Source of the DNA: Octopus vulgaris
Taxonomy: Eukaryota
Direction of reading: 5' to 3'
Assembly: GCA_951406725.2 (NCBI GenBank)
Contig: OX597816.1
Location: 174,840,001 to 174,904,000 of the forward strand
DNA: 64,000 nucleotides
Numbering within the stretch: position 1 is the stretch's first letter; every line of letters starts with the position of its first letter. The notes beneath the pieces were generated by a model. The model did no database searches. It was not told the DNA's origin and was given only the letters and a program-made list of their open reading frames with translations. The position numbers and the translations under genes are program-made. Positions 10,618-57,121 of this stretch are shown here, piece by piece.

Positions 10618-12950
10618 CATGTTGAATATCCGACAAGGCATCGGTCTGGGCAGCAGCCATCTATGCTAGATCTGGTATTCTCCCGCTATCCAAGATCAGT
10701 GTCAGACGTATCTGTGTGCACCCCTCTTGCCAAGAGTGATCATGCGGTCCTGAAGTTCGTCATGCACACAACTTTTTCCACGCCCACGATTACTTTGCTG
10801 CCACGTAGAGTCTTCTCTGCAATTAATCTTGAAATTCTAACCGAGGCTTCCGCGCTTCTGGACTGGCGTTCCCTGATGACGTTGTCCTCAGTTGACGAAC
10901 TATGGTCATCCCTCAAAGCATATGTAATCTGTTTGACTGACCAGGCAGTTCCCGTTGGACTTCCCAAGAGGAAGAAACACAAGCCCTGGGTGACGAAGAA
11001 GGTTAAACGAGAACGTCGACTCAGAGATATTGCTTGGGCTGAATTCAAAAATCTGGATTCGACTGCAGCTTTTGAGGTGTACAAAACTCAACGAGACTGA
11101 GCCGTGAAAATTGAAAAGAAAGAACGCTTCAGTTATGAATACAAAATCGCGGCAAATGCCAGTAGCAATCCAAAAACCTTCTTTGCCCATGTCCAGCGGA
11201 ATTCCCGCTTGAACAACCAGATTGCAACGTTGGTAGACTCAACAGGCGTATCGATTGAGGACCCTTATCAACAGAGTCAATTATTTGCCGAGGCTTTTTC
11301 AACTATTTTCAAACAAGATGATGGTCGTGAACCCCCTCCATTTGATAGATCGGTACCTCCAATGCTTCGATTGATCATCACGCGGGACCAAGTCAAACGT
11401 GTTATTCAAGGCCTCGATGTCAACAAGGGTCACGGCCCTGACGGCATACACCCACGGGTTATCAAAGCGTTGGCTCCGGTCATCTGCGAGCCCTTAACAC
11501 GACTATTCAATATGTCATTGGCGACGGGTGTTATACCTGCAGACTGGAGAACAGCGATAATCTGCCCAATTTTCAAGAAAGGGAGCCGCGAAGACCCGCT
11601 TAACTACCGACCGGTTTCCCTTACATCAATAATCAGCAAGATGTTCGAAACCATCCTTAAGAAAAGTATGATGCTCCACCTCCTAAACACAGCCTCGATC
11701 ACTGATTCCCAACACGGCTTCGTGCCGAAGAGATCATGCTTGACCAACTTACTAGTAATGGAAGAATTGGTGACATGCATCCTCGATGATAGTGATGCTG
11801 TTGACATCGTTTTATTGGACTTTGCCAAAGCTTTTGACTCGGTAAACCACCGCCTACTACTTGTCAAGCTTCAAGCATATAGTTTCCATCCGGATATTGT
11901 ACGATGGGTCAGTGCCTTCCTCTCAGATCGCTCCTTCCAAGTTCAAGTTAATGGTTCGCGGTCCGACGTCTCCAGTGCGAGCAGTGGCGTGCCTCAAGGT
12001 TCAGTGCTTGGACCCTTGTTGTTCTTAGTCTTCATAAATGACTTGCCCGACGACCTCACGCAACACACCCTTCTATTTGCCGACAATATCAAACTGGTCG
12101 CTCCTCGCGGTAGTATAGAGGATCTTCGTCGATGCCTCCACCAAATTTGGAAGTGGTCTAACGATTGGGACCTGTGTCTGAACGTGTCAAAGTGCTGTCA
12201 TCTGCCTGTCGGCTCTACTCCTGCAACTCAACTTGATTTCGAGCCGGGTCGTCTGCTGCTGGAGAGGACCGATCAGGTAAAGGACCTGGGTATCTTGGTG
12301 GATTCCTCCTTTTCGCCTTCGGCCCAGTGCGTCCATGCTGCCAACAAAGCGCGCGGAATTCTGTTTTTGATTCGATGGTCATTCGGAATGCTCACAGCAG
12401 CCATATTCCTGCCACTCTATGTCACGCTGGTGAGACACATATTGGAGTATGGGATTCAAGCCTCTTCTCCTTATCTCCTCAAAGACATACAGCACCTCGA
12501 AAGAGTCCAGAGGCTGGCTACCCGCATGGTTCATGGTCTCAAAAATTTGTCCTACGAAGAAAGGCTGAGGACGCTGACCTTTATTCTCTTGAAAAACGCC
12601 GCCACCGTGGTGATCTCATTCTCGCCCACAACATCATAAGCGGGAAGTGTAACCTCTCGAAAGAGCTGTTCTTCACTCTTGCTCCGGAGTGTCGGCTGCG
12701 GGGTCATTCCGAAAAGCTCTACCTGCGACGATTTCATCTCAATCGAAGGAGAGGAGCTTTCTCCGTCCGGGTTGCGGATCCGTGGAACAAGCTGCCAGAC
12801 GAGATGGTGAAGATGCCGACAACCGCTTTGTTCAAAGCCTCCCTGGACCTCAAGTGGCCTGAACTCTTTACATGAACACCACCCTGTACTTAACTCCATG
12901 TCCCCCTACATGGCCTTGCTATTTGCTTTTGAGCCAAAATAACTAACTAA
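10618..12950 (+). mobile_element. 5'-truncated CR1-group LINE (end of APE endonuclease + RT), decayed
   Basis: LDLVF..SDH, GPDGIHP, NYRPVSLTS, QHGF, GVPQGSVLGP; FADN instead of FADD; stop at 11098-11100; frameshift near 12575; (AACT)n tail. Confidence 0.92.
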
Positions 12951-19963: not shown

Positions 19964-21235
19964 AAGTTTAAGAGATACAGGGAAGAAGTTCAACTCAGGT
20001 AGACTATGATTGGTGTCTTCATATACGGATTTAATAAAAAGAATTGTCTAAAACATATATTAATACATTCAAAATATAGAGTTATAGAAATATAAAAATA
20101 TATATGAATGTTAAAAATATGCAAGGACAAATATATATATATACATATATAAATATAATGGAGTATAGATAAAAATATAGACATTTTGTTTGTTTTAAAA
20201 GAGTTTTTTAGTACCATATTTAAATGAAAAGAAGTATTCCTATGATTGTTTCAAGGGTTCATTCCAAGAGTACGTGAATCTTATGATTATTGCCACTTGG
20301 TTATAATTTTAAGAAATAAAAAAACTCCCACCTGCCCTCTTAATAATTTCCATAACATGTACGTTTCTTAGATAAAACATAAATTAACACCTCCAAAACA
20401 CATTTCTGGTGCAAGCACTATTCTTTTTTCCCTTGAAGTGAATCGTAAGGTTCACATGTACTCTCAGAATGAACCCTTGGAACGATCGTGGGAATACTTC
20501 TTTTCATTTAAGTATGGTACTAAAAAAACTCTTTTTAAACATTTATTACTCTCTGCATTCCATAATCTTTAAACAAAATGTCTTTATATACATTTTATTA
20601 TTCTCATCTTTATTTTTATCGAGATGTACTTGCATAGCAAGTGACCTGATCTGAGATCGTGTGCTGGAACGAAAACAGTTGCAGCGTGGAAGGTGCTTAT
20701 AAGCCATTTAAGAAACACAAAAACCATTAGATTCACTTCAACATTTAAATTTAATTTGCCAAAATATTTTCGTTACTTTGAGACCACGACCTGTTCACTG
20801 ACAAAATTCCATGCTTATGTTTCTTAAATGGGTTATAAATCACCTTCCACGCTGCAATTGTTTTCGTTATATTTTTATCTATACTCCTTTATATTTATAT
20901 ATGTATATGTTTATTTGTCCTTACATATTTTTAACATTCATATATATTTTTATATTTCTATACACTCATGGAGTGGTTGGCGTTAGGAAGGGCATCCAAC
21001 TGTAGAAACATTGCCAGATCAAACTGGGCCTGGTGCAGCCTTCTGACTTCCCAGACCCCAGTTGAACCGTCCAACCCATGCTAGTGTGGAAAGCGGACGC
21101 TAAACGATGAAACAATAACTCTTATATTTTGAATGTGTTAATAGATGTTTTAGAGAATTCTTTTTATTAAATCTGTATATGTATACACCAGTTGTAGTCT
21201 GCCTGAGATGAACTTCTTCCCTGTATCTCTTGAAC

Positions 21236-33700: not shown

Positions 33701-36700
33701 CCACCCCTCAAGAAGAAGAAAACCTGAAGAAAAGGAAAGAGGTTACTTCTTCATTTATGGCCATTAAGGCTACTAACAACAGACTTGTCAATGTGTTGGC
33801 AGCCATGGCCAAGGTGGAACGTATAAGGAAGATGAAAGACTTCATCATATACAAAATAGGCCGGAAGGACTACAGGAGGATAAAATCCGAGTTCTTCCAC
33901 GACGTGGGCCCGCTGAGACTGGACATGTCTCCATATCTATACGAGGGCCTACGTCGGACTCCCCCACGAGCCAAGGAAAAAAAAATGAAGAAGAAGGCGA
34001 AACTGCCGAACAAGCCAAACTACCGATATAAGGTAAGTGATGGACTACATTTGTGTTGGTTGTTTAAATGTGCGCGGACTGGGATCAAGCGGGAAGCAAG
34101 GTCGCTTCCTTAATGATATCAGGTCGCGCAATTTGGATGTTATTGTTGCTACAGAAACCCGGTTAAAGGGGCCAAGGGATCTACTCCCACTGTTTGACGG
34201 CTACGAGAGTTTTTCTCTCCTGGCAGTCCTGCAGGCGGGAGTGGGGTGTTGGTCCTACTAAAAAGAAACCGGGTTTTTGAGAAAAAAGTTAATTTTTTCA
34301 GACCCAGAAGGTAGGCTGGTCGTCATGGATTTGACGTTCAGTAACGGTAAAGTTATCAGACTGGTTGCAATTTACGCACCCTGCAGTAATAAAGGGCAAA
34401 GTGATTATTTTCGTGATCTAGAGAACTTTCTCGGTACTTCGCATTCAATAGTTGTGCTAGGAGACTTTAACACAATTTGCAAAGCGGATGTAGATTGTGT
34501 TGGCTCGAATGATAGAAAAGGTAACCCATGCTTCCTGGAACTGCTAAGCCGCTTTGAGCTAGCAGATCCTTATAGGTTGGAATTTCCGAACGCTCCATTG
34601 TGGACATGGTCAAACAGCGACGGATCTTCCAGGACATACATAGATAGAATTCTAATTAGAAAGGTAGACAGTAAAATAGCTAAGCGTCCACAGTTTTACC
34701 CGATCAGCTACAGTGATCATAAAATGGTCACTTGTAAGCTTGACATAGATAAGGTTAGAAAGAGAGGATCCGGTTACTGGAAACTTAATACGTCCCTTTT
34801 GGCGATTAAGGAGTACAGAGACCGGATTAGGACCATAATTCAGAGGGCGCTGTCTGGTGCCATCATTAATAACAAATGGTGGTACGCCCTCAAACGAGCC
34901 ATCAAGTTTGAGTCTATTAGATATAGCATAGGAGTAGTGTCTAGAGAGGCTAGAAGGGAAACTACTCTAGTTAAGGAATTAGAGGAAGCCATGAAAACTG
35001 GCTCTGCGGCTCAGGTGGCGTCCAAGAGACTGGTGTTAAACCAGCACCTCGAGGCCAAACACATGGGCTGCATTGTCAGGGCTAGAATCCGTCATACGGG
35101 ATGTGAAGGAATCAACGCCGTGAGATGGGCCCGAGTGGTGGAAGCCCGGAATGGCAACGATGCCACGATTCGATCTTTGAAGAACCAACAAGGTGAGTTG
35201 ATAGACGAACCCGAGGAGATGTGTGAGGCCTTTCAGGAGCACTTCGCTCAGCTTTTCGGTGAGTGCGGCGGACTGGATAGGAGGAGGGCCTTTACGGACC
35301 TACTCGACGGGCTGCCGCGCTTATCGGGGCGAGATGCGGAGGGCTGTGAAGGGCCAATCACGCCTGAGGAGGTGGTGGAGGCAATGGCGGACTGCGGCGC
35401 GGGCAAGGCGCCGGGTTTGGATGGTCTACCCTACGAGTTATATAAGAATATGCCAGACTTGTTCGGGCACCTACTGGCGGAAGTCTATGCGAACTGGCAG
35501 CAGAACGGGTTGATACCCAGATCTGTGCGCCGGGGAGTGGTGACTCTCGTCAGAAAGGACCCGAGCAAGGGGGAGTGCATTGATAATTTCAGGCCCATCA
35601 CTCTGCTAAACACAGAGTTGAAGATTTTGGCCAAAGTGTTATCGAAAAGATTGGCGCGTGTCGCGGATGGTCTGATCGGGGAGGCACAGACATGTGCCGT
35701 TCCGGGCAGAACCATTCAGGATAATCTCCATCTAATGCGGTACACTATAGAGGGGTTTAATAGTGATTCTGGCAAGGGTGGGGCACTGGTCCATTTAGAC
35801 CAATCCAAAGCTTTTGATAGGGTCGACCATCGTTACCTGGTGTCTGCCCTGGCACAGTTCGGGCTGGGCCTTGGCTTCCTCAGGTGGATTATCCAAATTT
35901 ACGACAACATCGACTCGGTAGTTCGGGTGAACGGCTTCTTGTCGAAGCCGTTCAAAATCAAACGCTCGGTTCGTCAAGGGTGTCCGCTCTCCCCGCTTTT
36001 GTACGTGATGGCTCTTGAGCCATTACTGCGAAAACTGAGCGGCATCCCGAGACAGCCAGGTAATGGAAAATCAGTGTCAGCGTACGCGGACGACATCACC
36101 ATCATCGTGACCGAAATGGACCACCTATGTAAAGTAGGCAAGGCCATAGAGGATTACGAGACGGTGACAGGAGCAAAAGTTAATCGCGAAAAGTCAGTCG
36201 GCTTGCAACTCGGCACCTGGAGAGGCAAGTCGATGCCTCCTGACAGCGTCGTGGGACGTTGGACGGAGGGTCCGATTAAACTGCTAGGGGTCTGGTTCGG
36301 TCCAGACCTCCAAATAGAGAAGAATTGGGGCGAGGTAACGAGCAAGGTGACTGCAGTAGCCAAGACCTGGTCTCGGCGGTGGCTATCCTTGAAAGGGAGG
36401 GCGGAGGTGGCCAATGTGTTTATCGCATCGGTTATCATCTACCGCCTTTCCGTCGTTCCATGCCCTGATTCGTGGTTGACCAAGTTGGAAAGACAGCTCT
36501 TCTACTTCCTGTGGAAGGGCAGGAAACCACTTGTGAAACGCTCTACTTGCTGTCAACAACCGTTAAAGGGTGGGCTAGGGATGCCTTGGCTGATGATGCG
36601 CAGACATGCGCTGAGGTTAAGACATCTGTGGCTCTACCTGGATGGTGAACGGGTGTGGTCTCCGTTAGCAAAACTGATGTTTCCCAAGTTCACTAGTTTC

Positions 36701-37688
36701 GGTGGATGGGAAACCTGGTTGAATCGTAGATCGAAACTCGGTACATGGTATACGGAGTGTCGAAAGGCCCTCCTGCTATTCCGTCGCTCGGGCAACGCCT
36801 GCGGTGGGGGTTCCACCACACTCTTCTATAGAGGGTTGGTAGAGGCGGAATGTGAAGACACCTTGGGGGAAACCCTGGGTCTCGACGATAATCAGCTGGC
36901 TAGTCTGTTCCGACGTACGTTCGAGCCGAAGACTCTGGACAACTTCCAGAAGTCTCTGGCATGGCAATGCTACAGAGGAGCTCTACCTGTTCGGGATAAA
37001 CTCGCAAGGCATGGTGGCCAAGACAGTCCGATGTGTCCAAGATGCGGGCGGGATAGGGAAACCGTCCCGCACGCTATTGTTCATTGTTCGGACGTGTCTG
37101 AGGTGTGGGTTTATGCCGAACAGCTGTTGTCAAGCACACGAAGAGTACAGCTGTCGACTGAGTGTATTAAAAAAATTGACCCACCAGATTTCCTCGCGAA
37201 AGAAGGTAAGATTTGTTTTCTCGTTGTGGTAGCAATTGCGAAGGAGGTGATATGGAAGACGAGAATGAAAGGTATACGGTCAGGCAAGTTCATATCCGGC
37301 CCTGGGTTGATGAATTACTTCATCTACCACCTGAAAAGGAAGATAGGGCTGGAGAGAAAATGCCTGACTAAAAGAGTGTATGAAGAACGATGGAAGGATG
37401 TAGCACGGAAGTTGAGAATGGATGACACCACATAAATGTAGATCAAAACGAAACCAAAAGTATCAGTGGTGAGGCGGGGCTCGTGGGGTCCGAGCTGAAC
37501 CCGCCCCCACTCCACCTGTAGTGTCTTCCGGTCTGTTTTTTCTCATTCGATTTTTTATAATTTTTGCAATTTTTGTGAATTTTTGGAATTTTTAAACTCA
37601 TACTTTTGTAACCTCATTCGTGAATCTGACCCCACATCAGGTTGTATTGTCCCCTCTTTGTTGGCCCCTTGTGGGTAATAATAAAACA
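33697..37688 (+). mobile_element. Tx1/L1-clade LINE, 5'-truncated within ORF1, inserted in (TA)n
   Basis: ORF1 remnant to 34113 overlapping ORF2; ~250-bp 3' UTR; (TA)n on both sides; GC-rich relative to the flanks. Confidence 0.92.
34040..37435 (+). CDS. Tx1/L1-type ORF2 (APE endonuclease, reverse transcriptase, C-terminal CCHC finger); one pair of compensating frameshifts near the 5' end
   Basis: LNVRGL, ATET, GDFN, YIDRIL, SDH, WKLNTSLL, PGLDGLPYE, FRPITLLN, LDQSKAFDRVDH, VRQGCPLSP, AYADD, CPRC..ETVPHAIVHC. Confidence 0.9.
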
Positions 37689-48162: not shown

Positions 48163-48193
<31 letters not shown>

Positions 48194-48302
48194 GGAACAA
48201 AAATGCAACAGAGGACAATAAAACATTCAGCAGATAGGCGATACAAAGGTGGACTGGAAAATACAAGTAAAGGACAGGCAAAAAAAAGACGGGTCATTCA
48301 TG

Positions 48303-48384
48303 GCCCTCCTTCCTCAGTCAGGTTCCCAGAAGTCCTTACTGTTTTGGGCAGTTACACTTGAGACAGTTCGATCTGGTTACCCCC
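48303..48384 (-). ncRNA. Putative rearranged hammerhead ribozyme, copy 1 (G12 mutated)
   Basis: ccagauc GA acugU C ucaagu guaacu gccc AAAA cagu AAG GA cuucugg ga accuga CUGAGGA agga gggc. Confidence 0.55.
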
Positions 48385-49034
48385 CAAAAAGTCTAAGCTA
48401 AGAGCATTAGATTTTTTTTGTAAGAAAGCTAGTAAATGTGTGTGGCAACAAAGACTAAAAAATGGAGAACATGGTACACAATTACAAATACAAAAAAAGG
48501 AAAATAACAACAGGTGTCTTTTGACTGAGAATGAATCAAATTGAGCTGGTGTGTATTAAGTGAAAGCCTAAAAGCAGAAACATAGGAGATGGACATAAGA
48601 GGTGTTGGCGGTCAGCAGTTAGGCCAAGAAAGAAAGATCGTGGCTGGACAGACACCAGTCATGTGGAAGAAGAGAGGGGTTGGAGGCAGTGGGATTGACG
48701 GATTGTAAAAAAAATCACAGACAATGGGAAAGGTACAGGGGAGATAAATGAAGGGGAAAAAAGTGTGAGTTAAAGACAGAAAGGGCCAAGAAATATGAGA
48801 GAGGGGGGGGAGTGAGAAAAGTGGAAAAATAATGACTAAAAGAAAGAGTAAGAGTCATACAAAATGTAGATACCTACTATTAGGTGAGCATAAGTGTACG
48901 TATGCCACTATATGTATATATAAATATAAAAATAAAAATCTCAACAGAGGAGAATAAAACATTCGGACAGACAATACAGAGGTGGACAGGAGAAACAAAA
49001 ATTAGGACAGGCAAAAGGAGAGGGTTCATTTATA

Positions 49035-49091
49035 GCCCTCCTTCCTCAGTTAAGTTACTTAACTGTTTCGGACAGGCACACTTGTGACAGT
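49035..49091 (-). ncRNA. Putative rearranged hammerhead ribozyme, copy 2 (truncated, stem I mismatched)
   Basis: acugU C acaagu gugccu gucc GAAA cagu uaagua acuuaa CUGAGGA agga gggc. Confidence 0.5.
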
Positions 49092-49148: not shown

Positions 49149-49183
49149 GTTTCCGACAAAGAGCTCCGCTCGAAATGTTAAAC
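49149..49183 (+). ncRNA. Degenerate minimal type I hammerhead-like motif
   Basis: guuu CCGACAA a gagc-ucc-gcuc GAAA ug UU aaac. Confidence 0.45.
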
Positions 49184-49342
49184 CCTCCTTTCCTGAGCAT
49201 CCAATAATACTATATTTGTTCCACGTCCTCGCGTTGTTGTGTTTTTTTTGTGCTTTCTTGTTTGGATTAACTATATATATATATATATATATGAAAAAAC
49301 AAGTCAAAAATAGAAAATGCTAAAATAATTTTATAGTGAACA

Positions 49343-49386
49343 TTTCAGTACCGGTTTCGGTCATTTTGAGACCTTTTCAACTGTAA
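49343..49386 (-). ncRNA. Minimal type I hammerhead-like motif, U3:A8 variant
   Basis: uuacag UUGAAAA gguc-ucaaaau-gacc GAAA ccgg UA cugaaa. Confidence 0.65.
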
Positions 49387-50100
49387 CGATTAAATAATTA
49401 AATTTAGAAAAATTAGAAGAAAAGTTTTTTTAAAAGAATATTTCTATAGTAGTGTTCAGATTTAAGTGGCATTCTGCCTTTCTCTGACTCCCTTGTTTGC
49501 ACTTGTGTGTCGGAGGTCGTTGTGAGTTCTTGGAAGGGTAGTAGAGGAAGAAGGCTGGTGGGGAAAGGGGGATGGGAGAATCTGGGAGTGCCCTGATGGT
49601 CGTATTTTGAATGGTCAGTGGCGGCTGGCAGTCTCAGTTCAATTCAGGAGAATATTTATATTGACAGGCTTGTTTATAGAATTAGCGTAGGTGTTATACT
49701 AAAAAACATTAGCGACAAAGTTAAGGGGTAGGGGGTGGAGAAGTAGAAGAAGAAGAAGGAGAAGGAGAAGATGACGATGATGGTGTTTTTCCTTAGTAAT
49801 GATCGGCCATTTTGTATTCCTATTGTATGTGTCTTTATTTGTGCATGTAGGAATGTATCTGTATTATCAGTATCCCCTGTTTATACATATTCGTTTAATT
49901 TGCTTTTATCTATTTTGTCCATGTTTATATCAGCTTATTTTTTCTTTTCTTTCTACAATATATATATGTATATATATAATATGTATATATATATTACGGA
50001 GACGGACTTGCATAGCAAGTGACCTGAAGTGAGGTGGTGTGTTGGAACGAAAACAATTGCAGCATGGAAGGTGTTTATAAGCCATTTAAGAAACACAAAA

Positions 50101-50590
50101 CTGATTAATCTTGAGATCGCTCCGATCCGGCCAGCCCCAAGGAAAAACTAAGCTCCGAGCATTAGATTTCTTGGAAAAAGGATCGAATGTATACGAAACA
50201 GGGACAGAGAAACGGATGATGCCACACGAATATAAAATACAAAAAACAATAATGGTAAAAACATGACAAAAACAGCGGGTGTCTTACGACTAATAGACAG
50301 TACAACTTAGTTTAGCTGGTGCATTTGGAAAAAAATGCCTTTTTCGGCAGACGAAGACAACGATCTTCTCATGGCGCTGGTTAGAAGCTGCAAAATACAA
50401 AATGGGACAAGAATGCAAAACATTCAAATAGACGATACTAAAAACGGACGGGTCATTCGAAGCTTCTAATGTTCAGTCAAGAACCGGATCATCCTCGCAA
50501 TTTCGGCTGATTAATCTTGAGATCGCTCCGATCTGGCCAGCCCCAAGGAAAAACTAAGCTACGAGCATTAGATTTCTTGGAAAAAGGATC
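50101..50590 (-). mobile_element. Retrozyme-like non-autonomous repeat, 1.2 copies of a 406-bp monomer
   Basis: 84-bp direct repeat 50101-50184 / 50507-50590 (2 mismatches); homologous in permuted order to about 48190-48630. Confidence 0.6.
50461..50542 (-). ncRNA. Putative rearranged hammerhead ribozyme with kink-turn, copy 3 (G8 mutated)
   Basis: ccagauc GGA gcgaU C ucaaga uuaauc agcc GAAA uugc GAG GAU gauccgg u ucuuga CUGAACA uuaga agcu. Confidence 0.6.
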
Positions 50591-53454: not shown

Positions 53455-54143
53455 AAAGAAAAGAAACAGATCCAGAGCAAACGCTCAAATGAAGAAAGGC
53501 CAGTATGTATCCATTACAGGCACAACAAGTGCAAACATGGTCTTTCAGGTACAGGGTGCATGTACAGTCACCCCAAACCATGCAGACCATATATCAACTT
53601 CGGTACTGATCGAAAAAAAGGATGCCAAAATGGCCGAGAATGTGAACTCCTTCACCCAAAGATGTGCCGCAATTTGCTGAGAAAAAAAGAATGTTTTGGT
53701 GAGAATTGCAAATTTATGCACCGGAAGGGTACAATTCGCATAAAAACTACTGAACCCACACCACCAGGACCAAGCTCAGCAGGGTATGAAAACCATTTCC
53801 CAAAAATGCGGAACCCAGGTCATGGCTCAACAGTGAATGAAAATCATGCTACTCAATTGCATACATCAGCTGTAACAAACCCAAACTCGCAGAAATTCGA
53901 TATAGTAATGAATGAAAGCAGTTTTTTAGGCATAATTTACCAACAACAACAACAGCTGTATACTCCATACAGACGACTCAGCAAAACCAGGCAACATTGA
54001 TACAAAGGCTGACACCTGGACTTACAGGGCACATACAACAAATACAGACAGCCCAGCAGACCGAATATCCAGTCAGCACAGTCCCAGCAACTACAACAGT
54101 CTTGCCAACAATAGGGCAGATGTATCCGGTACAACAAGCATAA
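53455..54143 (+). pseudogene. LINE ORF1 remnant with tandem CCCH-type zinc fingers and Q-rich C-terminus
   Basis: CIHYRHNKCKHGLSGTGCMYSH / CRPYINFGTDRKKGCQNGRECELLH / CRNLLRKKECFGENCKFMH; probable frameshift near the (CAA)n run at 53941. Confidence 0.7.
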
Positions 54144-54199
54144 TAACAGCAAATATCCAGGGTCTTTATCCGAAAACAAAACAGTGTAAAGTCCCTTTC

Positions 54200-57121
54200 T
54201 TGGAAGAATTAGCAACAGAAAACAACTCCAAAATAATTGGAATTACTGAAAGTCATCTCAACGAAAACATCCGCAACAGCGAAATCACAATCAATAGATT
54301 CAACATCTTCAGATGTGATAGACAAGGCAGATCCCATGGGGGCGTTATCATGTATATCCATGATACCTATGCAGGCATAGAACTTGTCAATGAATCAAAT
54401 GCCTACTGCAACCTGCTGTGCATAAAAATCATCCAACTTAATACAGTTGTAACAATAATGTACAGACCGCCAAACAGCCCAACATTATCCTTCACTGAGC
54501 CACTGACGACGCTCCAACAAATTCTGGGAAACATGGCAAGTCCAATGCCAGACATTATCCTCCTTGGTGACTTCAACTTCCCTAACATCATCTGGCCACA
54601 TGGACACATACTAAAACTGGGGACAAAAGCTGAACAAATACAGGCAGCCAAACTGTTGGAAGTCACAGAGAAATTATACCTCAAACAAATGATGACAGAA
54701 GCAACAAGAAATAATAATACGATCGACTTGGTTTTCACCAACAACGAGGACACACTATTTGACCTTCACTCAACCCCAACAATCCTTTCAGACCACAATA
54801 TTATTGAAATGCATTTACACATTGGTAATGAGCCCAATGCCACAACTCTTAAACAAAAGGACATGCCAAAGCTATGCAGGTATGATTATCACCAGGCAAA
54901 TTGGGAAACTATTAACAACCAGTTACAAATCATTGACTGGGATCTCTACCTTACTGGGCCAGATAAACACAAGAAATTCTTAAACAAGATCGAAGAAATA
55001 TGTGAAAAAAATGTTCCTCTAAAGAAAACCAAGTCCACAAAAAAACCTGTACCTCGGGAGCGAAAGATCCTGATGCGCAAAAGGTCAAGACTAAGAAACA
55101 AAACATCTAAGCTGACATCAAAACATGAATTACAGAAAGTCCTTGACCAAATATACAGATTAGAAGACAATCTAAAACAACACTATGATGAAGAATGTAA
55201 CAATGCAGAAAAGAGAGCCATAGAAAACATCAAGAAAAATCCAAAATGTTTCTACAGTTTTGCAAAGAAATACTCGAACACCAAGTCAACAATAGGACCT
55301 CTCCAGAGACAAAATGGGGATGTAGTGAATAACCCTGTTGAAATGGCAGAAATGTTGGGTCAACAGTATGAAAGTGTCTTCAGTGAGCCATCTAAAACCA
55401 TGAAGATCCATGACCCAGGAAAATTCTTCAAGGATATCGACCATACTAAACCTACCCTATCCGACATAGATTTCAACCCAGAAGACATAGCAAGAGCCAT
55501 AGACAAGCACTCCATGCACTCGGCTGCGGGGCCTGACGGTTTCAATGCCATGATACTTAAAAACTGCAAGGTACAATTGTCGAAACCCCTTTACATGATA
55601 TGGAGGGAATCTATGGAGAATGGCAAAATACCAAATACATATAAAGAAGCACACATAACTCCAATACATAAAGGGGACAGCAAATCAAAACCAAAGAACT
55701 ACCGACCAATCTCACTGACATCACACATTATCAAGGTCTTCGAAAGAATAGTTCGTGGAAAACTGGTTGAGTTCCTGGAATCCAACAATCTGATGAATTG
55801 CAACCAGCATGGATTCAGGTTAGGTAGATCATGTCTTTCCCAACTACTGGCACACCATGACCAAATCCTAGAAAATCTAGAGAATGGATACAACACAGAT
55901 GTTATTTACCTCGACTTTGCCAAGGCATTTGACAAGGTAGATCATGGTCACAAACTTCGAAAGCTAGGAGTAGGAGGAAAAGTTGGTACATGGATACATG
56001 AGTTCCTTACAAATAGAACTCAAACAGTCACTGTGAGTGGAACCCATTCAACACCATCACCTGTGACCAGCAGTGTTCCTCAGGGTACAGTACTCGGCCC
56101 AATCCTGTTTCTTATCCTCATCTCTGACATAGATGAAGATACAACCAGCAACGTCTCATCCTTTGCTGATGACACCAGGGTCATGAGACAAATCAAAGAC
56201 GAGGTGGATACAGAGGCCTTACAAAAGGACCTGACCACCATATATAAATGGCAGGAAACAAACAACATGTTGTTCAATGATAAGAAGTTTGAACTAATTC
56301 GCTACGGAACAGATCAAGATCTGAAAAACACAACAAACTGCAGAAACCTATCAGGACAACAAATAATGGAAAAACAGTATGTGAAAGATTTAGGCATCCA
56401 CATGGGAACCAACCTAAAATTCAGAGAACACCTTGACTCAGTCTGTCTTACTGCAAGAAAGTACAGCGGGTGGATCTTGCGCACCTTCAAATCAAGAGAT
56501 ACCTCAACAATGAAAACCCTCTGGAACAGTATCATACTTCCGAGGATTGACTACTGTTCTCAGTTATGGTCACCAACAACAAAAGGCCAACTATCTAAGA
56601 TAGAATCGCTCCAAAGAAATTTTACCTCATACTTCTCAGAAACGAGGGACCTGGACTATTGGCAAAGACTCAAAACCTTGAGGATGTACTCAATAGAAAG
56701 AAGATTTGAGCGATACCGAATTATATACATTTGGAAAATGATAGAGCAGAAGGTGCCAAACTTTGGTATCAAAACCTACCACTCACTGCGCCACGGAAGA
56801 CGCTGCCAGCTGCCACCAATCAACAAAAAGGCTGGCCAGGCAGCAAAAACCCTGCGAGAATCAAGTCTGTTGGTTCGAGGAGCACAACTGTTCAACTCCA
56901 TTCCGGTACATGTCAGAAATCTATCAGGATGCAGTGTGGAATCATTCAAATTGCAGCTGGATAGATACTTAAGCACCATTAGAGATGAACCCCATCTCCC
57001 AGGATATACACAACGAGCACAAACTGACTCAAACTCGCTCCTACACATGTCAAAATTAAGCAGAGAATATAACCTGGCAACCACACCAGACTCTGAGGGT
57101 GGAGTCTTCGACTTGGCCTGA
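54200..57121 (+). CDS. LINE ORF2, APE endonuclease + reverse transcriptase
   Basis: ITESHL, YRPP, GDFNFP, SDHN, GPDG, NYRPISLTS, QHGFR, DFAKAFDKVDH, PQGTVLGP, FADDT; frame is open upstream (ANIQGL) without an ATG. Confidence 0.92.
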   Translation: MEELATENNSKIIGITESHLNENIRNSEITINRFNIFRCDRQGRSHGGVIMYIHDTYAGIELVNESNAYCNLLCIKIIQLNTVVTIMYRPPNSPTLSFTEPLTTLQQILGNMASPMPDIILLGDFNFPNIIWPHGHILKLGTKAEQIQAAKLLEVTEKLYLKQMMTEATRNNNTIDLVFTNNEDTLFDLHSTPTILSDHNIIEMHLHIGNEPNATTLKQKDMPKLCRYDYHQANWETINNQLQIIDWDLYLTGPDKHKKFLNKIEEICEKNVPLKKTKSTKKPVPRERKILMRKRSRLRNKTSKLTSKHELQKVLDQIYRLEDNLKQHYDEECNNAEKRAIENIKKNPKCFYSFAKKYSNTKSTIGPLQRQNGDVVNNPVEMAEMLGQQYESVFSEPSKTMKIHDPGKFFKDIDHTKPTLSDIDFNPEDIARAIDKHSMHSAAGPDGFNAMILKNCKVQLSKPLYMIWRESMENGKIPNTYKEAHITPIHKGDSKSKPKNYRPISLTSHIIKVFERIVRGKLVEFLESNNLMNCNQHGFRLGRSCLSQLLAHHDQILENLENGYNTDVIYLDFAKAFDKVDHGHKLRKLGVGGKVGTWIHEFLTNRTQTVTVSGTHSTPSPVTSSVPQGTVLGPILFLILISDIDEDTTSNVSSFADDTRVMRQIKDEVDTEALQKDLTTIYKWQETNNMLFNDKKFELIRYGTDQDLKNTTNCRNLSGQQIMEKQYVKDLGIHMGTNLKFREHLDSVCLTARKYSGWILRTFKSRDTSTMKTLWNSIILPRIDYCSQLWSPTTKGQLSKIESLQRNFTSYFSETRDLDYWQRLKTLRMYSIERRFERYRIIYIWKMIEQKVPNFGIKTYHSLRHGRRCQLPPINKKAGQAAKTLRESSLLVRGAQLFNSIPVHVRNLSGCSVESFKLQLDRYLSTIRDEPHLPGYTQRAQTDSNSLLHMSKLSREYNLATTPDSEGGVFDLA

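Follow-up and report, generated by a model that had tools for sequence, protein, structure and literature searches.

The 406-nt partial tandem at positions 50101 to 50590 of the window, that is, the whole stretch of 64,000 nucleotides of Octopus vulgaris DNA that was analysed, is probably a dead fusion derived from an abundant non-coding repeat family with units of 700-865 nt, which would be mobilised by Penelope-like elements (PLEs), would carry a predicted self-cleaving hammerhead with its blocks in the order S-G-C and would be copied by the mechanism proposed below. The initial annotation, which described a retrozyme-like family with a 406-bp monomer, was wrong on the unit and right on the kind of element. 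Its idea stands at the level of the family, a non-autonomous PLE-like element with a rearranged predicted hammerhead and with partial tandems and multimers of 700-865 nt crossing the cut site, but it does not stand at the window locus, which is a unique chimera, and non-LTR retrozymes are defined by a type I hammerhead, which this one is not. The locus is composed of the following parts:

50507..50590, plus strand: 84-bp repeat, copy in the B piece (self-comparison of the window)
50101..50184, plus strand: 84-bp repeat, copy in the A piece (self-comparison of the window)
50392..50590, minus strand: 199 nt from the 3' end of a subfamily-B copy that is truncated on its 5' side and has lost the (TA)n tail at the junction
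50101..50391, minus strand: internal piece of subfamily A, lacking ~455 nt at the start and ~130 nt at the end of the ~860-nt unit
50377..50400, minus strand: B/A junction, unique in the genome, with a short T-run microhomology
49999..50100, plus strand: unrelated repeat (second copy at 20621-20722), truncated where it is fused to the element

The 84-bp direct repeat is as first described, 82 of 84 positions being identical at a distance of 406. Both copies also contain, on the minus strand, the AUC triplet before the proposed cleavage sites (50521/50520 and 50115/50114), but on prediction neither site works: the upstream core reads CUGAACA, that is, G8C, and the downstream site is without a GAAA or CUGANGA block. 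The exact 406 period and the triplet in both repeats favour the view that this sequence represents a retrozyme monomer in its own right, with a ~400-nt circle as its template. That view is very improbable, since the upstream core bears G8C and the second core is deleted, the 24-nt junction (50377-50400) has a single match at one mismatch or fewer in the 2.8 Gb of genome searched, namely the window itself, the two halves come from different subfamilies (the 3' end from B and the internal piece from A), and same-strand neighbours among the first 100 listed core matches of the family are spaced at 699-859, with none near 406. In addition, the junction was spanned by none of the 39 other scored candidates (from the best 40 of 4,957 in an element search of the genome). 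The unique part of the upstream piece has a mean identity of 95.6% to subfamily B versus 89.2% to A, and the internal piece is ~95% identical to subfamily A versus ~85% to B (6 B loci of sufficient length). Because the upstream piece belongs to subfamily B and the internal piece to subfamily A, the 84-bp repeats derive from different elements. The downstream (A) copy stops 14 nt past its triplet, where it is joined to another truncated repeat. When the genomic copies were mapped, the others proved collinear with a fixed 3' end and the window locus a unique local chimera, which contradicts the proposal of a 406-nt monomer here; therefore, no ~400-nt circle is expected. The locus is likely a unique, dead fusion of two truncated copies. 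In the contig pieces listed on the window and on one family locus (L006), no junction bridge, end pile-up or splice-like joint was seen, although contigs cannot prove absence.

The family itself is abundant. A 25-nt core pattern gave 4,343 exact matches in the genome versus 0 for the reversed control; a looser pattern (85,481 matches versus 27,223 for its control) served solely for finding families. The real units are ~700-865 nt long, family A having a period of 831-865 nt and related units measuring 699-713, 769 and 827 nt. All 29 of 29 family-A loci are collinear and share a common 3' end in (TA)n, with the two halves in the reverse order to that in the window; they extend ~455 nt further upstream and then, where long enough, into another 3' end, and they show variable 5' truncation and, in three cases, inverted 5' pieces. 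Among 98 sampled copies a TA-run lies at most 175 nt away in 92 and an inverted 5' piece occurs in 5, and the 3' end lies 30-50 nt further on in 7 of 90 non-continuing copies. Tandem dimers and multimers with complete cores, which are absent at the window locus, are present elsewhere in the family (loci L092, L222 and L289). L289 (G000:C1:70373500-70380500) is a 4-mer array of a 706-709-nt unit, with 0-1 substitutions among its units and versus L092, and the two repeats of L222 share variants against L092 and differ from each other by 1 substitution. That the element has no open reading frame was borne out, the longest ATG frame being 38-124 aa in six family units read as circles and judged by length. 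This pattern of a fixed 3' end in (TA)n, 5' truncation, partial tandems, inverted pieces and a 4-mer is, as judged from the DNA, of the non-autonomous PLE type.

One locus taken as a possible second chimera (L270) was rejected as such, being a family-A copy with a 35-nt deletion. At least three further repeat families (D, E and F, at L103-L111) have the S-G-C order with unrelated stem sequences. At L006 and L025 the 5' part of the unit resembles a Penelope 5' intron, with a donor of the GTAAGT type, a CAG acceptor and a long run of pyrimidines; these features are placed ~405 nt and 8 nt before the start of the A piece, and similar donors occur in L035 and L076. The deletion in the window does not match these GTAAGT/CAG splice-like sites.

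A related copy at 48190-48630 had been described as a circular permutation of the same blocks. It is instead collinear with the real unit of a third family, C, with a fixed 3' end of the same kind, and the partial repeat upstream of it, at 48930-49091 (period ~733), belongs to the same copy:

48195..49091, minus strand: partial tandem of family C, period ~733, with the S-G-C fold as in A and B

The downstream core of this copy reads AAAA instead of GAAA, and its upstream piece begins ~5 nt before its cut site. Consequently to CUGAACA (G8C), lost blocks or AAAA for GAAA, no intact ribozyme copy occurs in the window, and no ribozyme family of Rfam matched in the window or in one tandem locus. 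Beside the family C copy, two degenerate minimal hammerhead-like stubs can be recognised by eye (49153-49177 on the plus strand and ~49325-49385 on the minus strand); these stubs, near 49150 and 49340, are attributed to other PLE-like repeats. The window also holds long LINE-like frames on the plus strand at 34262-37432 (1057 aa), 53936-57118 (1061 aa) and 11101-12636 (512 aa).

In the predicted fold of the family RNA, the hammerhead blocks follow a non-circular S-G-C order, and an upstream splint together with a K-turn-like bend takes the place of stem II. Two upstream strands act as pairing partners: Y for the strand that precedes GAAA and X, further upstream, for the strand that follows CUGANGA. 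A hairpin, H1, lies between Y and X, and the core, X, H1 and Y would form a four-way junction. In the window its parts, listed in the 5' to 3' direction of the RNA, are as follows:

50543..50580, minus strand: hairpin H1 of the upstream splint strand
50537..50542, minus strand: Y' strand, partner of the strand before GAAA, which replaces the normal stem II
50530..50536, minus strand: 5' strand of P4, which extends stem III past the K-turn-like loop
50515..50526, minus strand: block S, comprising a stem III strand, AUC, the predicted cut at 50521/50520 and a stem I strand
50497..50510, minus strand: block G, comprising the Y strand, GAAA and a stem III strand
50470..50482, minus strand: block C, comprising a stem I strand and the core CUGAACA (G8C; CUGAAGA in the family)
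50454..50469, minus strand: X and P0 3' strands, partners of the far-upstream strand (partly lost in the window copy)
50109..50189, minus strand: second, incomplete domain with P0/X', H1, Y', a P4 strand and block S (cut 50115/50114), without a G or C block

Covariation was assessed in 28 sequences of several families, from which the structure itself was drawn and whose relatedness inflates the shuffle control; with this proviso, 88.3% of cells pair. Pairing reaches 97.0% in stem I, 97.1% in stem III and 91.7% in Y, versus 26-47% in slid controls, and two-sided pair changes number 4, 3 and 3, respectively. Helix X is paired at 70.9%, with U-U positions in family A and a register shift in family C, and P4 at 76.9%, the weakness of both coming partly from a one-column shift in family C. 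For a competing stem II that carries an insert of 5 nt, the figure is 79.5%. Furthermore, a descriptor of the S-G-C order matched 86 times in 742 kb of loci enriched for the families, compared with 0.6 matches per shuffle; of the 86, 67 have an upstream Y helix of at least 5 bp and 4 have a stem II of 4 bp that is formed directly. CUGANGA, GAAA and the A-U pair are conserved over unrelated stem sequences, including those of families D and E and of Naiad elements, and in 63 of the 86 matches the junction of stem III and P4 has a bulge of 3 nt and tandem G-A, in agreement with the K-turn consensus. The automatic search for X with the descriptor was noisy and is excluded as evidence. The minimum-energy fold recovers the nested helices, with a stability not above that of shuffles (z +0.57). 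A canonical type I/III reading with a downstream CGAAU as block G was also tried and rejected by eye, as it gives no stem III or stem II pairing. The family RNA is modelled, as a prediction, to carry a self-cleaving hammerhead in scrambled S-G-C order. G8C, the change found in the window copy, is reported in the available text of PMC11167929 to abolish a PLE hammerhead. A literature search in which subscription journals were thinly covered gave no paper on such a fold in PLEs.

The 5' ends of genomic copies bear on whether the predicted cut is made. They were mapped for the first 100 of the 4,343 core matches, the pattern lying 42-67 nt past the cut; two identical inner units of L289 were collapsed, so that n=98, with some copies from the same tandem. 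Thirty ends fall at 0 to +20 from the predicted cut, versus 3 at -21 to -1 and 5 at +21 to +42. The step at the cut has a binomial p of 7e-7, and of all 21-nt intervals the one beginning at 0 is the best. Three of the 30 ends were shifted to 0 from -6, -3 and -3, where the extra letters continue a TA-run, the unshifted counts being 27 and 6. All 30 copies starting in this interval are solo. In family C, 4 of 30 ends lie at 0 to +20, none in the 21 nt before and 2 after, which is the same direction and not significant alone, and 3 of 20 Naiad ends lie near the site, the anchor masking (censoring) most of that interval. The pile-up right after the predicted cut suggests that the RNA may be cut in living cells.

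The main rival reading of the pile-up is a transcription start at the same place; reverse transcriptase (RT) pausing at helix Y, or (TA)n microhomology, would serve as well, the fold then being protein-binding or inactive. Transcription of PLEs does start in the pLTR (available text of PMC8557442), positions +3 to +9 are AT-rich, and the signal of family C is weak. Against this stand the upstream edge of the pile-up, which coincides with the predicted scissile bond, the 15 of 30 ends at +11 to +20, mainly within the GC-rich CAGCCGAA stretch, the long hairpin H1, which has no comparable peak (6 ends, -63 to -43), and the retention of the core motifs over unrelated stems, and we regard an origin of the pile-up other than cleavage as unlikely.

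The mechanism proposed for the family would run as follows. Read-through transcripts of tandem copies would be cut by the ribozyme into site-to-site monomers, and reverse transcription would start internally, at a fixed U/A-rich point ~140-150 nt past the cut. On linear cut RNA the RT would run off the 5' end and leave solo copies of ~130-150 nt; if the template were a circle formed by re-ligation, or a multimer left uncut, the RT would pass the site and give partial tandems and arrays. The window chimera would have arisen by a template switch or a later deletion, its 3' end being lost by a second deletion. For a PLE, an internal start of the RT and a tail of 30-40 nt have been reported (PMC11167929, in its available text); the same text describes hammerhead cleavage in a canonical PLE as dispensable in vitro and RNA-seq ends at the site as not seen. 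Among the copies that reach to or past the unit junction (n=19), 7 read through the upstream site and none starts at 0 to +20 from it. The pile-up together with these long copies would fit a cut made in vivo and templates that are circles or uncut multimers, a ligated circle and an uncut multimer being indistinguishable from DNA.

A cutting ribozyme could also act with no circle at all. Long copies would then come from uncut read-through or from RT template jumps, as in ordinary pseudo-LTR formation, and local duplication would later have produced the arrays. It is usual for PLEs to show partial tandems and inverted pieces (available text of PMC8557442), the sampled copies include the inverted 5' pieces given above, the window locus is itself chimeric, and within family-A loci the identity between repeats is not clearly higher than their identity to other loci (ranks 0-27 of 28). 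On the other hand, the very young 4-mer would require escape from three cuts, and no long copy stops at the upstream site. We consider this circle-free version rather unlikely and prefer the mechanism with passage of the site on a circle or multimer.

As to the mobilising partner, the 66 loci around PLE RT matches include 5 distinct places where remnants of a Naiad RT have the S-G-C fold downstream of them, the remnants being recognised by a weak RVT_1 match (E 1.3e-5, below cut-off). The same fold can be read in the published ends of Naiad_Obim and Naiad_Ovul (PMC8557442), and the octopus Naiad-end motif taken from that publication has 412 exact matches in the genome. According to the available text of Craig et al. 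2021 (PMC8557442), (TA)n is the target of Naiads, which have no canonical hammerheads and of which Naiad_Ovul and Naiad_Esco are marked HHR_half_core. By eye alone, ~5 of 15 Naiad ends from its supplement look S-G-C-like. Also by eye, the spider and ostracod Naiad ends there seem to keep the S-G-C order with the split stem II wired differently; the bivalve ends have another conserved fold without a hammerhead core. Families A-C have the fold in common with the Naiad 3' end and not the sequence, so that the link consists of fold and target. In the 66 loci, many of them too short or broken, no autonomous element with an A-, B- or C-type 3' end behind an open reading frame was found. The family is likely mobilised by a Penelope-like RT, probably of a Naiad, a partner that we infer. 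Elsewhere in the genome, five loci (L178, L179, L181, L183 and L184) hold near-identical copies of intact frames of 723-782 aa with RT and, at the C-terminus, a GIY-YIG-like part, whose 3' end lies in (TA)n and which have no CUGANGA in 0.4-1.3 kb of 3' sequence. This young RT-GIY-YIG family (L178-L184) was considered as the partner and, having no such motif, is not an evident one.

If the family reading is true, non-circularly permuted hammerheads, known from environmental RNA, are placed in animal genomes with a new wiring of the core, and the reports of Naiads without hammerheads would be explained. The role of the PLE hammerhead and the origin of pseudo-LTRs also become testable, through the sharp pile-up at the cut site and the very young multimers, the 406-nt locus itself being merely a broken by-product of the family. 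In its widest form, to which we give rather less than even credence, the proposal is that octopus-like genomes contain a retrozyme-like class in thousands of copies, and that its hammerhead, made of four strands and permuted non-circularly, with a split stem II and a K-turn, would be the missing Naiad ribozyme and would cut in vivo; linear monomers would give the short solo copies and re-circularised ones the tandem pseudo-LTR arrays, and the genome would thus record the role of the PLE ribozyme in transposition.

Several known systems resemble the octopus family in part. Non-LTR retrozymes (Cervera and de la Pena 2020, PMC7229834; Li et al. 2026, bioRxiv 10.64898/2026.07.22.740005) are, in the available text of these sources, likewise non-coding, hammerhead-bearing tandem or multimeric animal repeats that are likely mobilised by PLEs, and the octopus unit is inside their range of 51-972 bp (Li et al. 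2026). They have a type I hammerhead and form arrays, whereas the octopus family has the S-G-C order without a direct stem II and consists mostly of solo 5'-truncated copies with a fixed 3' end, known here from DNA alone. Type-SGC hammerheads such as HRIMA-1 (Eckert et al. 2023, PMC10085705) share with it the S-G-C order, the short linker from stem I to the GAAA strand and the core nucleotides. Unlike HRIMA-1 as given in the paper's text, the strands after CUGANGA and before GAAA are not paired with each other in the octopus family, each pairing with the hairpin-bearing upstream splint, and stem III is lengthened through the K-turn-like loop; in the same text, Eckert et al. found no SGC forms in the genomes of known organisms. 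Naiad PLEs (PMC8557442, available text) share the (TA)n target, 5' truncation, partial tandems and inverted pieces, whereas the octopus family has no RT/EN frame and, the fold apart, is not detectably similar in sequence to the 3' end of Naiads. The hammerhead is thus not of type I and, being SGC-ordered, is without the direct stem II of the SGC type, and the element works like a non-LTR retrozyme or a non-autonomous PLE.
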